In this document: piece after piece, positions 21,001 through 27,000 of the stretch
How the letters are laid out: each line of letters opens with the position of its first letter
Position numbering within the stretch: position 1 is the first letter of the stretch
Sequence record: AF125520
DNA: 61,670 nucleotides
From: Escherichia phage 933W
Direction: 5' to 3' (one strand)
Program-made: the position numbers

Positions 21001-24000
21001 AATTGGCGTTGAGCTGGAGAGCGGGCGTTTTGAGCAGACGGTCAGGGAAGTTCAGAATGTAGTCAGTCAGAACGGATGATATTGCAGGATTAGTTACGTA
21101 CCGTTATTATCCTGCGCCCGGCCCTTTAGCTCAGTGGTGAGAGCGAGCGACTCATAATCGCCAGGTCGCTGGTTCAAATCCAGCAAGGGCCACCATATCA
21201 CATACCGCCATTAGCTCATCGGGACAGAGCGCCAGCCTTCGAAGCTGGCTGCGCGGGGTTCGAGTCCTCGATGGCGGTCCATTATCTGCATTATGCGTTG
21301 TTAGCTCAGCCGGACAGAGCAATTGCCTTCTGAGCAATCGGTCACTGGTTCGAATCCAGTACAACGCGCCATATTTATTTACCAGGCTCGCTTTTGCGGG
21401 CCTTTTTTATATCTGCGCCGGGTCTGGTGCTGATTACTTCAGCCAAAAGGAACACCTGTATATGAAGTGTATATTATTTAAATGGGTACTGTGCCTGTTA
21501 CTGGGTTTTTCTTCGGTATCCTATTCCCGGGAGTTTACGATAGACTTTTCGACCCAACAAAGTTATGTCTCTTCGTTAAATAGTATACGGACAGAGATAT
21601 CGACCCCTCTTGAACATATATCTCAGGGGACCACATCGGTGTCTGTTATTAACCACACCCCACCGGGCAGTTATTTTGCTGTGGATATACGAGGGCTTGA
21701 TGTCTATCAGGCGCGTTTTGACCATCTTCGTCTGATTATTGAGCAAAATAATTTATATGTGGCCGGGTTCGTTAATACGGCAACAAATACTTTCTACCGT
21801 TTTTCAGATTTTACACATATATCAGTGCCCGGTGTGACAACGGTTTCCATGACAACGGACAGCAGTTATACCACTCTGCAACGTGTCGCAGCGCTGGAAC
21901 GTTCCGGAATGCAAATCAGTCGTCACTCACTGGTTTCATCATATCTGGCGTTAATGGAGTTCAGTGGTAATACAATGACCAGAGATGCATCCAGAGCAGT
22001 TCTGCGTTTTGTCACTGTCACAGCAGAAGCCTTACGCTTCAGGCAGATACAGAGAGAATTTCGTCAGGCACTGTCTGAAACTGCTCCTGTGTATACGATG
22101 ACGCCGGGAGACGTGGACCTCACTCTGAACTGGGGGCGAATCAGCAATGTGCTTCCGGAGTATCGGGGAGAGGATGGTGTCAGAGTGGGGAGAATATCCT
22201 TTAATAATATATCAGCGATACTGGGGACTGTGGCCGTTATACTGAATTGCCATCATCAGGGGGCGCGTTCTGTTCGCGCCGTGAATGAAGAGAGTCAACC
22301 AGAATGTCAGATAACTGGCGACAGGCCTGTTATAAAAATAAACAATACATTATGGGAAAGTAATACAGCTGCAGCGTTTCTGAACAGAAAGTCACAGTTT
22401 TTATATACAACGGGTAAATAAAGGAGTTAAGCATGAAGAAGATGTTTATGGCGGTTTTATTTGCATTAGCTTCTGTTAATGCAATGGCGGCGGATTGTGC
22501 TAAAGGTAAAATTGAGTTTTCCAAGTATAATGAGGATGACACATTTACAGTGAAGGTTGACGGGAAAGAATACTGGACCAGTCGCTGGAATCTGCAACCG
22601 TTACTGCAAAGTGCTCAGTTGACAGGAATGACTGTCACAATCAAATCCAGTACCTGTGAATCAGGCTCCGGATTTGCTGAAGTGCAGTTTAATAATGACT
22701 GAGGCATAACCTGATTCGTGGTATGTGGGTAACAAGTGTAATCTGTGTCACAATTCAGTCAGTTGACAGTTGCCTGTCAGACTGAGCATTTGTTAAAAAA
22801 ATTTCGCATGGTGAATCCCCCTGTGTGGAGGGGCGACTGGTGAAAAATCCTTGCTTGTGATTCATTATCGACACGGGTTCGGTGGTACCAGGCCGAACTC
22901 ACCGGGAGGCACCCGGCACCATGCAGTATACAGAGATTAGGCATATACCAAGGCCTCTCATAGCAGGGGCCTTTTTACATGTAAAAAAGCCCGAGTGGGT
23001 TCGGGCAATTGCATGAGATACTCGTTTTAATAATCGAAATCATTTTAACCAGGATTCATAAGGCTGCGCAACTGCGCGGCCTTTTTCGTATTTCGGGCTG
23101 TAGTCTTCCTTCTGCCATTGTCCTGTAACTTCCGGACTTCAGCCCGCTCCTTATTTTACTCACAATATTATCCCGGCCGGGAGGATTCATGGCATTTAAA
23201 CACTATGATGTTGTCAGGGCGGCGTCGCCGTCAGACCTTGCGAAACGAATAACTCAAAAACTGAAGGAAGGGTGGCAGCCTTATGGTAGTGCGCTGATTT
23301 CGACAGCTGGTTATGGTGCGGAGTTCATCCAGCCAGTTGTGAGTGAGGGGAGCATCTCATCACCAGAGGAGCCAGGCAACCGTCCGACGACCTCAGCGCC
23401 TTCTGTTGCGCCAGAATATTACTATGTGATCGCGCTTGCTGGTCAGTCCAATGGTATGTCATACGGTGAGGGACTGCCATTGCCGGATACATTCGACAGC
23501 CCTGATCCACGTATTAAACAGTTAGCGCGTCGCAGTACGGTGACACCGGGCGGTGCAGTATGCAAATATAACGACATCATTCCGGCGGACCATTGTCTGC
23601 ATGATGTGCAGGACATGAGCCGTCTTAACCATCCGAAAGCGGACCTGTCAAAGGGGCAGTACGGAACCGTGGGGCAGGGGCTGCATATCGCCAAAAAACT
23701 GCTGCCGTTTATACCGGCGAATGCGGGCATTCTGCTGGTTCCGTGCTGTCGTGGTGGTTCAGCGTTCACCACCGGAGCCGATGGCACATACAGTGACGCG
23801 AGTGGTGCCTCGGAGAATTCAACCCGCTGGGGTGTGGACAAGCCGCTGTATAAGGACCTTATCGGTCGAACAAAAGCAGCACTGAAGAAGAATCCGAAAA
23901 ATGTGCTGTTTGCCGTGGTGTGGATGCAGGGGGAATTTGATTTTGGCGGTACGCCGGTAAATCACGCCGCACAGTTTGGTGCGCTGGTTGATAAATTCCG

Positions 24001-27000
24001 TGCAGACCTGGCGGATATGGCAGGCCAGTGCGTCGGTGGCTCTGCTGGCGGTGTTCCCTGGATATGCGGGGACACGACGTATTTCTGGAAGCAGAAGAAC
24101 GAATCCACGTACCAGACGGTGTATGGCAGCTATAAAAACAAAACGGAAAAGAATATCCATTTCGTACCGTTCATGACGGATGAGAACGGGGTGAATGTGC
24201 CGACGAACAAACCGGAAGAAGACCCGGACATTCCGGGTATCGGATATTACGGTTCGAAATGGCGTGACAGCTCAGCCACCTGGACGTCACAGGACAGGGC
24301 GAGCCATTTCAGTTCATGGGCTCGCCGCGGGATTATTTCCGACCGTCTGGCAACGGCGATTTTGCGCCATGCGGGAAGAGTGGCGCTAAACGCGGGGGCA
24401 TCATCGACAGTATCAGAGGTGCGCCCGTCATCGCCTTCCGGTGCAGAAGCCACAGGCGTCACAACACTGCTCTCTTACCTTGCCAGCGAGTCAGAGGGAA
24501 GCCTGAAAGTACAGGGATGGTCAGCCAGTGGCGGCAGGGCAGAAGTGGTCAGCGATGCGGAGGGAACCGGAGGTAAGGCAGTGAAGCTGACCAAGGAAGC
24601 CGGTAAAAGCAGCTGGGTGCTGGAGTACGCCGCGGGCAACGGTGCGGCTCTGTTACAGAAAGGGGGGCAGATTCGCTGCCGCTTTAAGGTTTCGGGAGCG
24701 CTGGCTGCGAACCAGTATGTTATGGCGTTTTACTGGCCGGTATCTTCACTGCCACAGGGCGTTGCCCTGACCGGAGACGGGGGGAATAACCTGCTGGCAG
24801 CGTTCTACATCCAGACAGATGCAAAAGACCTGAATGTGATGTACCACAATGCGAAAGTGGCGACAAACAACCTGAAACTGGGAACCTTTGGCGCATTTGA
24901 TAACGAATGGCATACGCTGGCTTTCCGCTTTGCCGGGAATAACAGCCTGCAGGTGACGCCGGTTATTGATGGTCAGGATGGCACACCGTTCACGCTGACG
25001 CAGTCACCGGTCAGTGCCTTTGCGGCGGATAAACTGCATGTGACAGACATTACCAGAGGTGCGACTTACCCGGTACTGATAGACAGCATTGCGGTGGAAG
25101 TGAACAGCACAGACACTGCGGCATGATAAAAAAACCGCCAGCGACAGGAATGGACGCTGGCGGTGGTGATACCTATGGAGAAAAAATAAAGGAACGATAC
25201 TTTCGTACTCTGGTTTTTAATGAAAACAGTTCTTATTGTCAACAATAACGGAAAGAAATTATGACATTTCTGAACCAGTTAATGCTGTACTTCTGTACGG
25301 TGGTCTGTGTGCTGTATCTCCTTTCGGGTGGGTACAGGGCCATGCGTGACTTCTGGCGCAGACAGATTGACAAAAGGGCCGCTGAGAAAATCAGCGCCAG
25401 TCAGTCAGCCGGAAGCAAACCCGAAGAGCCGCTCATTTAGCGGCAACTTTCTTAATCACACCTTTCGACGAGAAAATCCCATGTCAGAAATTACATCCCT
25501 GGTCACTGCAGAGGCAGTGAAGGACGTCCTGCGCTCTGAAGAAGTCCGGAGCGCACTGAAACAGAAACTTCGCCATAACCTGGAAGCGCGTCTTGATGCA
25601 GAAGTGGATGCCATTCTGGATGAACTGCTTGGTGTACAGGCAGAGCCACCGACTGAAGCGGGAGATACCACCGCAGAGAGCGGTGAAGTTCAGCCTGAAT
25701 CACCGGTCGCCGATGCGACTGAACCTCAACCCGAATCGGTCATGATGCTGTAACGGGGAGTCAGGGCCATCAGTAAACAGCTGCTGGCCTTTTTCATGTT
25801 GTGAGCTTCCGGATTGCGGGAGACGGGGTATGTACCAGATGGAAAAAATCACAACAGGTGTGTCATACACCACGTCAGCGGTGGGAACGGGCTACTGGTT
25901 CCTGCAGTTGCTGGACAGGGTTTCCCCGTCTCAGTGGGCGGCAATAGGCGTGCTGGGGAGTCTGCTGTTTGGGCTGCTGACATATCTGACGAACCTGTAT
26001 TTCAAGATTAAAGAAGACCGGCGTAAGGCGGCACGGGGAGAGTAAGCTGATGAGCAGGAAACTCCGCTATGGTTTATCGGCTGCCGTTCTGGCGCTGATT
26101 GCCGCAGGTGCTTCTGCGCCTGAAATCCTCGACCAGTTTCTGGATGAAAAGGAAGGTAACCACACCACAGCATACCGTGATGGTGCGGGTATCTGGACCA
26201 TCTGCCGTGGAGCCACCCGGGTGGATGGTAAGCCTGTTATTCCTGGCATGAAGCTGTCGAAGGAAAAATGCGACCGGGTTAACGCCATTGAGCGTGATAA
26301 GGCGCTGGCATGGGTGGAGAAAAACATCAAAGTGCCGCTGACCGAACCCCAGAAAGCGGGGATCGCGTCATTCTGTCCGTACAACATTGGTCCCGGTAAG
26401 TGTTTCCCGTCGACGTTTTACAGACGAATTAATGCAGGTGATCGAAAAGGTGCCTGCGAAGCTATTCGCTGGTGGATTAAGGACGGTGGCAGAGACTGCC
26501 GTATTCGTTCAAACAACTGTTACGGTCAGGTATCCCGTCGTGACCAGGAGAGCGCGCTGGCGTGCTGGGGAATCGACAGATAAGAAGAATATTTTGCTGA
26601 AAAATGAGGTTTGCTTACCTGGACGGATAACACGAAATCCTGCAAATTGGCAAAATGTAAGTGAATAAAGTCAAAACAGTTGTTTAACACTCAGGCACCG
26701 TAATGATGCCTTTGTCATTTCTGCGCATCTCACGCGCATCTCACAACACAGAACCTTTCAGGATGACCCTTGAGGATACCGGTTTGGCTGTCGGTGCCTT
26801 TCTGTGGGCTGGATTCCTGTGAGACAAGGTTCATCACTAAAAGGAAATAACCGATGAATATGATGGCCGTGCCGTTTCACGGCAACTCTCTTTATGTAGT
26901 TAACCATAATGGCGAACCATACGTTCCCATGAAACCTGTCGTTGCGGGGATGGGGCTGGCCTGGCAATCACAGTTGGCTAAGTTAAGACAGCGTTTTGCG

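Follow-up and report, generated by a model that had tools for sequence, protein, structure and literature searches.

Relatives of nanS-p, the gene of Escherichia phage 933W examined here (sequence record AF125520; "the window" is the whole stretch of 61,670 nucleotides), are known from bacterial chromosomes and from Shiga toxin (Stx) prophages. The chromosomal NanS of Escherichia coli (YjhS, 9-O-acetyl-N-acetylneuraminate esterase) is encoded in the NanR-regulated nanCMS operon and acts within the envelope or the cell (PMC5512079, PMC3658417), whereas NanS-p would be a late phage product, released by lysis and bound to virions. Bacteroides EstA and Tannerella NanS, secreted esterases of gut and oral bacteria, resemble NanS-p in activity, as they also de-O-acetylate mucin sialic acids outside the cell, which unlocks sialidase and feeds E. 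coli (PMC5512079); unlike NanS-p, these enzymes leave the cell through its own export pathways and have no association with phages or virions. Growth of E. coli on mucin in the presence of sialidase is boosted by an extracellular esterase and not by its own NanS (PMC5512079). Vimr (2013) described a prophage copy of nanS that lies immediately behind stx and encodes additional domains at both the N- and the C-terminus, and noted further copies in stx-negative strains (PMC3658417). The prophage gene z1466 encodes a functional Neu5,9Ac2 esterase (reviewed in PMC8065619), and multiple NanS-p proteins of strains EDL933 and O104:H4 remove O-acetyl groups from mucin glycans and let these strains grow on Neu5,9Ac2 (reviews PMC8065619, PMC10462455). 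Mitomycin C raises nanS-p by 1 to 2.4 logs in parallel to stx2a (PMC10462455), and norfloxacin likewise induces it (PMC8065619). The activity of NanS-p, its growth benefit and its co-induction with stx2a are already known from work published between 2013 and 2023.

Our analysis indicates that nanS-p very probably encodes a three-domain late-gene product, a Q-dependent and capsid-borne sialate O-acetylesterase that is set free by lysis and benefits sibling cells. The gene is an uninterrupted open reading frame (ORF) on the + strand at 23189..25126 in the ORF listing of the window, with an ATG start, 645 aa and a stop codon, and it begins 486 nt after stxB, which lies on the same strand. The protein is identical over 645/645 residues to vb_24B_21 (gp84) of phage phi24B, to the protein encoded by the NanS gene of phi296, a phage without stx, and to UniRef Q8X2B4_ECO57, and the authors describing phi296 state that its gene is identical to z1466 of phage 933W (PMC12502783). 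On the strength of these matches and that statement, the ORF is, by sequence identity, nanS-p (z1466 / L0105 / 933Wp42 of 933W-type Stx2a phages). The window and phi24B are collinear, with 99.6% identity across the 27 kb of the late region, and we detected no difference from the NanS-p of described Stx phages (phi24B gp84, 6YP6): the protein, its three domains, the slot between stx2B and DUF1378/S and the neighbors are the same. At least 999 public contigs encode exactly this protein. Matches were found in 2252 of 5426 complete E. coli genomes, at up to 15 places per genome, and many of the partial ones are probably chromosomal nanS.

The protein carries, in order, the Pfam domains DUF1737, SASA and DUF6645, which is the NanS-p architecture. 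Residues 72-393 align with E. coli O157 NanS/YjhS (PDB 3PT5, E=2e-117), residues 423-640 are 100% identical to PDB 6YP6 "NanS-p", and DUF6645 is placed at residues 489-607 (E=1e-74). The SASA match (PF03629; 39.7 bits against a cutoff of 24.8) covers profile positions 55-157 of 226, a partial match as would be expected for the divergent NanS subfamily. Because of these domain matches and alignments to solved structures, nanS-p should not be regarded as a chance ORF. ORFs antisense to it, for example 23443..23841 (132 aa) and 23819..24160 (113 aa), both on the − strand, were set aside as chance ORFs, the + frame being homologous over its full length. Ser87 (in GQSN, from residue 85) and His373 (in RASH, from residue 370) align with 3PT5 chain positions 30 and 312, which we take to be Ser19 and His301 of NanS on the assumption of an 11-residue tag; these two residues are reportedly catalytic in NanS, and Ser87 and His373 presumably form the catalytic dyad here. 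In the same alignment, CCRGGSAF (residue 186) and WMQGEFD (residue 247) are identical to NanS, so that the two proteins have in common an SGNH-variant core with GQSN, CCRGGS, QGE and R(S/A)SH. Chromosomal NanS, presumably 326 aa long (the 3PT5 chain has 337 residues), lacks both DUF1737 and the C-terminal domain of NanS-p. In the literature, too, NanS and NanS-p are reported to share their SGNH block variants, and Y510, Y515, Y540 and F611 of the C-terminal domain are proposed for glycan binding (PMC10462455); a residue check found all four aromatics here. The initial annotation of this locus is upheld in these respects: its 645-aa SGNH-type esterase candidate behind stx is an ORF at exactly these coordinates with GQSN/Ser87, CCRGGS, QGE247 and RASH/His373 all in place; removal of O-acetyl groups from sialic acids is borne out by the published activity of z1466 on Neu5,9Ac2 and mucin; and the idea of a gut carbon source by the growth of EDL933 and O104:H4 on Neu5,9Ac2 via NanS-p. 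The enzyme assay and growth comparison that it suggested are already in print, with the outcome it predicted (reviewed in PMC8065619, PMC10462455). Annotation resources trail this literature. The PHROG family phrog_143 spans the full length of the protein under the label "unknown function," an NCBIfam search of NanS-p gave no match, and many GenBank records name the product "hypothetical protein."

NanS-p differs from the chromosomal esterase also in its probable place on the virion. A 2026 preprint on phi24B reports, from proteomics and cryo-electron microscopy (cryo-EM), the identical protein as a capsid decoration: gp84 is among the strongest virion bands (~70 kDa when fresh and ~35 kDa after storage), on each facet of the T=9 head a hexamer of residues 1-54 is plugged into the central hexon via Tyr42, and the protein is cut between the catalytic and C-terminal domains; the authors propose self-cleavage at SSP motifs (bioRxiv 10.64898/2026.04.10.717836). 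A residue check found Tyr42, Gly54, SISSP (55-59) and the second SSP (414) all present in the 933W protein. Given the same anchor domain and the same capsid protein as in phi24B, NanS-p would be expected on the 933W virion as well, at about 120 copies per particle by our arithmetic. Like the mucus-binding decoration proteins of the T4 Hoc type, gp84 is described as non-essential, located at hexon centers and exposing a glycan-interacting module, a comparison made in the preprint; it differs from T4 Hoc in being a hexamer and not a monomer, in bearing an enzyme and in shedding its cargo by self-cleavage (phi24B preprint). The late region of the window also contains a 2806-aa giant ORF (49025-57445, +). 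Its phi24B counterpart, gp47 (2811 aa), is abundant in the virion, unseen in cryo-EM and a proposed ejection protein (phi24B preprint).

If DUF1737 is an anchor, the part in contact with the capsid might be expected to vary with the head. We compared NanS-p homologues from GenBank phages and IMG/VR loci domain by domain, and assembled a co-variation set of 37 loci, each encoding a full-length protein and having its head module typed by terminase, portal and capsid probes. Residues 1-32 form one cluster, and residues 33-54 form three: cluster A, the type of the window (GSALISTAGYGAEFIQPVVSEG), cluster B (GSPVAITPYTLMQAIAAEG) and cluster C (GGPFSSYTDDGAALIQAIVAEG). Cluster A is paired with a 933W-type head in 9/10 loci and cluster C with a Stx2_499-type head in 9/9, while the 18 cluster B loci divide among lambda-type (12/18), WGPS2-type (5/18) and Stx2_499-type (1/18) heads. 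The adjusted mutual information between residues 33-54 and head type is 0.715 over the 37 loci (permutation p about 5e-4) and 0.386 over 14 dereplicated combinations (p about 0.004); the corresponding values are -0.001 and -0.08 for the esterase, and 0.163 and -0.28 for the C-terminal domain. From simple linkage one would expect the reverse, since residues 33-54 are farther from the head genes than either the esterase or the C-terminal domain. The most clear-cut example is Stx2a_WGPS2, which has a different head and, compared with the window, 96% identity in the esterase and 99.6% in the C-terminal domain, and only 27% in residues 33-54. This co-variation appears to fit the anchor role of DUF1737.

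Two pairings among the IMG/VR loci (L014-L093) depart from the pattern, a type-A anchor being joined to a WGPS2-type head in one and a type-B anchor to a Stx2_499-type head in the other; these could be recent recombinants, assembly chimeras or anchors tolerating more than one head. The lambda-headed siphovirus vB_EcoS-640R1 encodes, at 5986-6189 in the Q-to-S position, a lone DUF1737 protein of 67 aa that lacks the esterase and has a second half of type B; it may be an anchor without cargo. With slightly more doubt than belief, we advance a broader proposal: residues 33-54 would be an exchangeable head-specific adaptor that carries the same cargo of esterase and lectin on at least four lambdoid head types, and NanS-p proteins would be general virion-displayed mucin-modifying enzymes of E. 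coli prophages, a phage counterpart of haemagglutinin-esterases, for which behavior in mucus is primary over lysogen feeding or the toxin. The haemagglutinin-esterases of influenza C virus, coronaviruses and toroviruses are envelope glycoproteins of animal viruses that combine a virion-surface sialate O-acetylesterase with a jelly-roll lectin-type domain. The resemblance would be one of working principle only and not of membership.

The proximity of nanS-p to the toxin genes invites a functional reading. To place the 933W arrangement in context, stx was surveyed in the best 80 of more than 597 NanS-p loci in IMG/VR. It lies upstream in 23 of the 71 evaluable loci and is not upstream in the other 48/71. 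Phage phi296 lacks precisely stxAB, its homology to the window jumping from 21409 to about 22748, and keeps an identical nanS-p; PhiR5_1, a lambda-headed phage of E. coli C, carries a 55%-identical NanS-p homologue between Q and S without stx. By base composition nanS-p (G+C 0.553) does not stand out from the phage backbone as a moron, its G+C at third codon positions (GC3) being 0.585 against 0.568 for the capsid gene; that of stxAB, an insert of low G+C content upstream of nanS-p, is 0.42. Acquisition of stx and nanS-p as one cassette was ruled out by the base composition, by phi296 without stxAB and by the 48/71 loci without stx. The link of nanS-p to the toxin is positional, not functional.

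This part of the window is the leader of the late genes in a lambdoid Stx2 phage (Table 1). The gene sits between the antiterminator gene Q and the holin gene S on the same strand, a layout that is identical in other phages. The STnc100 and AsxR small RNA genes are convergent and together fill the stxB–nanS-p gap. AsxR has been placed 282 bp 3' of stx2AB (Tree et al., 2014), in exact agreement with its coordinates here, and is described in the literature as destabilizing FnrS and so derepressing the haem oxygenase ChuS. The stem of the hairpin at 23060 is kept in the centroid structure (-18.3 kcal/mol) of a 71-nt fold. A simple consensus scan, which could miss a weak promoter, found no + strand sigma-70-like promoter between 22703 and 23188, and the only candidate it gave upstream of nanS-p is pR'. 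Because STnc100, AsxR and terminator hairpins occupy the gap and no promoter-like site was found there, nanS-p and stx in one transcript are plausible only as Q-antiterminated late transcription from pR'. Downstream of nanS-p, the small DUF1378 and DUF826-type ORFs are both conserved. Weak Rfam matches (Esr41-like at 25126-25203, Leu_leader, snoZ30) were dismissed as far under their gathering scores.

Table 1. Features of the nanS-p region and the capsid gene in the window (AF125520).
Feature	Position	Strand	Basis
Antiterminator Q gene	20205..20678	+	Pfam Phage_antitermQ, E=1e-50
Candidate late promoter pR'	20666..20693	+	Promoter-like site; coincides with phi24B-annotated pR' after 559-nt offset
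tR' terminator hairpin, first terminator facing Q-modified polymerase	20723..20744	+	Terminator scan; phi24B terminator at equivalent place
Three tRNA genes, CAT (ileZ in Sakai annotation), Arg-TCG and Arg-TCT, between tR' and stxA	21120-21371	+	
Terminator-like hairpin after tRNA genes	21384-21403		
stxA (stx2A)	21462-22421	+	Pfam RIP; G+C 0.45
stxB (stx2B)	22433-22702	+	Pfam SLT_beta; G+C 0.415
STnc100-family small RNA, stem-loop and U-run at end	22777..22982	+	Rfam RF02076, 207.7 against gathering 47 bits; model 1-206/206
AsxR anti-small RNA, antisense to late transcript	22984..23036	-	Rfam RF02703, 88.1 bits against gathering score 63
10-bp GC-rich hairpin and T-run, 96 nt ahead of nanS-p start	23060..23093	+	Terminator scan
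Shine-Dalgarno-like GGGAGGA, 3 nt ahead of nanS-p ATG	23179..23185	+	Sequence reading
nanS-p coding sequence	23189..25126	+	ORF listing; 645/645 match to phi24B vb_24B_21; full-length PHROG phrog_143
DUF1737 domain, residues 1-54, with Tyr42, ending Gly54	23189..23350	+	Pfam PF08410, residues 3-53, E=4e-18
Linker, residues 55-71, SISSP at 55-59 (SSP at residue 57), proposed autoprocessing site	23351..23401	+	Motif search
SGNH/SASA esterase core, residues 72-393	23402..24367	+	3PT5 alignment, motifs, Pfam SASA
Ser87 codon	23447-23449	+	Alignment to NanS 3PT5
His373 codon	24305-24307	+	Alignment to NanS 3PT5
Linker, residues 394-422, second SSP motif at residue 414	24368..24454	+	Motif search
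Lectin-like jelly-roll C-terminal domain (DUF6645), residues 423-645	24455..25123	+	6YP6 identity; Pfam DUF6645
DUF1378 ORF between nanS-p and holin gene	25261-25440	+	
148-aa ORF (DUF826 protein annotated in related phages), overlaps DUF1378 ORF	25307-25753	+	
P21-type holin (S)	25830-26045	+	Pfam
Lysozyme	26050-26583		Pfam
Major capsid protein, reported DUF1737 partner	34601..35815	+	404/404 identical to phi24B major capsid protein

These results qualify three expressions of the initial annotation. For "co-transcribed," the published co-induction with stx2a speaks in its favor, but co-transcription is not readable from the sequence and would need Q antitermination across a gap holding small RNAs and terminators. 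In "metabolic lysogenic conversion linked to the toxin locus," the enzyme, substrate and carbon source stand, while the link to the toxin proves positional in view of the 48/71 loci without stx and the GC3. The term "lysogenic conversion" itself fits poorly with a gap in which no promoter-like site was found, a protein without signal peptide and an identical protein reported on a capsid.

No signal peptide or membrane anchor was found in NanS-p (the maximal 15-residue Kyte-Doolittle mean is 0.85 in the first 60 aa), and no transmembrane segment over the whole protein (maximal 19-residue mean 1.38). A secreted or periplasmic NanS-p was ruled out, as there is no signal peptide and the N-terminus is DUF1737. 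We picture the favored mechanism as follows. Q would let transcription from pR' pass tR', the tRNA terminator, stxAB, the STnc100 terminator and the 23060 hairpin, a step that is partly shown; nanS-p would then rise with stx2 at prophage induction, for which co-induction is published and a single transcript is what we infer. Because it has no signal peptide, NanS-p is predicted from its sequence to stay in the cytoplasm until phage lysis, at which it would be released on virions and probably also free. Culture supernatant of enterohaemorrhagic E. coli contains Z1466 alongside another 933W-prophage protein, Z1483, consistent with release by lysis. On the virion, if the preprint's result for the identical protein and identical capsid protein carries over, the DUF1737 hexamer would sit on the central hexons and display the esterase and lectin-like domains, and slow self-cleavage at the SSP motifs would eventually shed them. 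The SGNH core, aided by the lectin-like domain, would de-O-acetylate free Neu5,9Ac2 and mucin-bound sialic acids, as published for z1466/NanS-p, and surviving sibling lysogens would use the de-O-acetylated sialic acid, the growth effect being published and release by lysis being its probable route. The benefit would thus be a public good paid for by the lysed cells, with the same logic as Stx release, and the virion-borne activity may also help the phage in mucus. Late expression in cells about to lyse, the missing signal peptide and the capsid location suggest that the nutritional gain goes to siblings after lysis and not to the producer.

The reading closest to the initial annotation is classical lysogenic conversion, in which the intact lysogen makes the esterase for its own use and the gene is a metabolic moron tied to the toxin. 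Lysogens with nanS-p alleles do grow on Neu5,9Ac2 and gain an advantage (PMC8065619, PMC10462455), NanS-p protein is reported 40-fold up in simulated colonic medium (PMC8065619), and the gene lies in the post-pR' region, which is tolerant of moron insertions. We nevertheless consider this account unlikely, since the protein has no signal peptide, no promoter-like site was found in the gap and three terminator-type structures stand ahead of the gene, which rises by 1 to 2.4 logs only on induction (PMC10462455); moreover, its GC3 is capsid-like and not stx-like, 48/71 loci lack stx and gp84, identical in sequence, forms a major band of virions (phi24B preprint). A different view puts the selected function on the side of the phage: the capsid esterase and lectin would help virions bind, cross or escape sialylated mucus, much like a receptor-destroying enzyme, and the bacterial carbon benefit would be a by-product. 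This role was raised in a review (PMC8065619) and agrees with the reported capsid decoration and delayed self-processing (phi24B preprint), with an anchor sub-domain swapped to fit the head type while the cargo domains are kept, and with the presence of homologues at this site in many lambdoid phages that lack stx. Against this, the bacterial growth benefit is the sole phenotype measured so far, and several phages that appear to be viable carry a truncated or broken nanS-p; we hold a purely phage-side function to be possible but doubtful.

Two further explanations concern other targets. Vimr (2013) speculated that the esterase converts host O-acetylated sialic acids and so exposes or creates the Stx receptor (PMC3658417). 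The co-induction with stx2a (PMC10462455) could be taken this way, as could the placement of the gene right behind stx, and on its strand, in Stx1 and Stx2 prophages and in those of S. dysenteriae, but two thirds of the sampled loci are without stx and Stx2e, Stx2f and Stx2g phages are without nanS-p. The Stx receptor Gb3 is, moreover, a neutral glycolipid without sialic acid, and we find assistance to the toxin scarcely credible. Removal of O-acetyl groups from O-antigen or capsule for adsorption, as by tailspike deacetylases, was also raised in a review (PMC8065619), and a tail protein family in PHROG matches NanS-p weakly (E=8e-4); nonetheless, the protein is reported on capsid facets and not on the tail (phi24B preprint), and both its nearest homologue and the assayed substrates point to sialic acids, which makes activity on the bacterial surface very improbable.

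Several points weigh against the capsid-borne, Q-dependent and lysis-released esterase that we favor. The capsid-decoration result comes from one preprint that is not peer-reviewed. The co-variation sample is small, its loci are not phylogenetically independent, and it contains the two pairing exceptions as well as a cluster B that goes with two head types. Co-induction is documented, but the continuous stxB–nanS-p transcript is one that we infer, and the simple promoter scan may have missed a weak promoter giving basal expression. Finally, nanS-p is interrupted by IS629 at about codon 557 in Sakai Sp5 (locus L003, 4170-5479), truncating the C-terminal domain, as noted also in PMC10462455; in Stx1_2409 (L011) it has an in-frame stop at codon 270, and in phi330 (L006) a frameshift near codon 125. 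Because of these lesions, full-length NanS-p appears dispensable for the phages concerned.

In the ecology of enterohaemorrhagic E. coli, NanS-p makes the O-acetylated sialic acids in colonic mucus available for catabolism, and its induction accompanies that of Shiga toxin. As enzyme, substrate and induction are already published, finding them again adds nothing. Because the preprint places the identical protein on the capsid and only the sub-domain in contact with the capsid tracks head type, the textbook label of a metabolic conversion gene may be secondary to a role in the movement of Stx phages through mucus and the spread of toxin genes.

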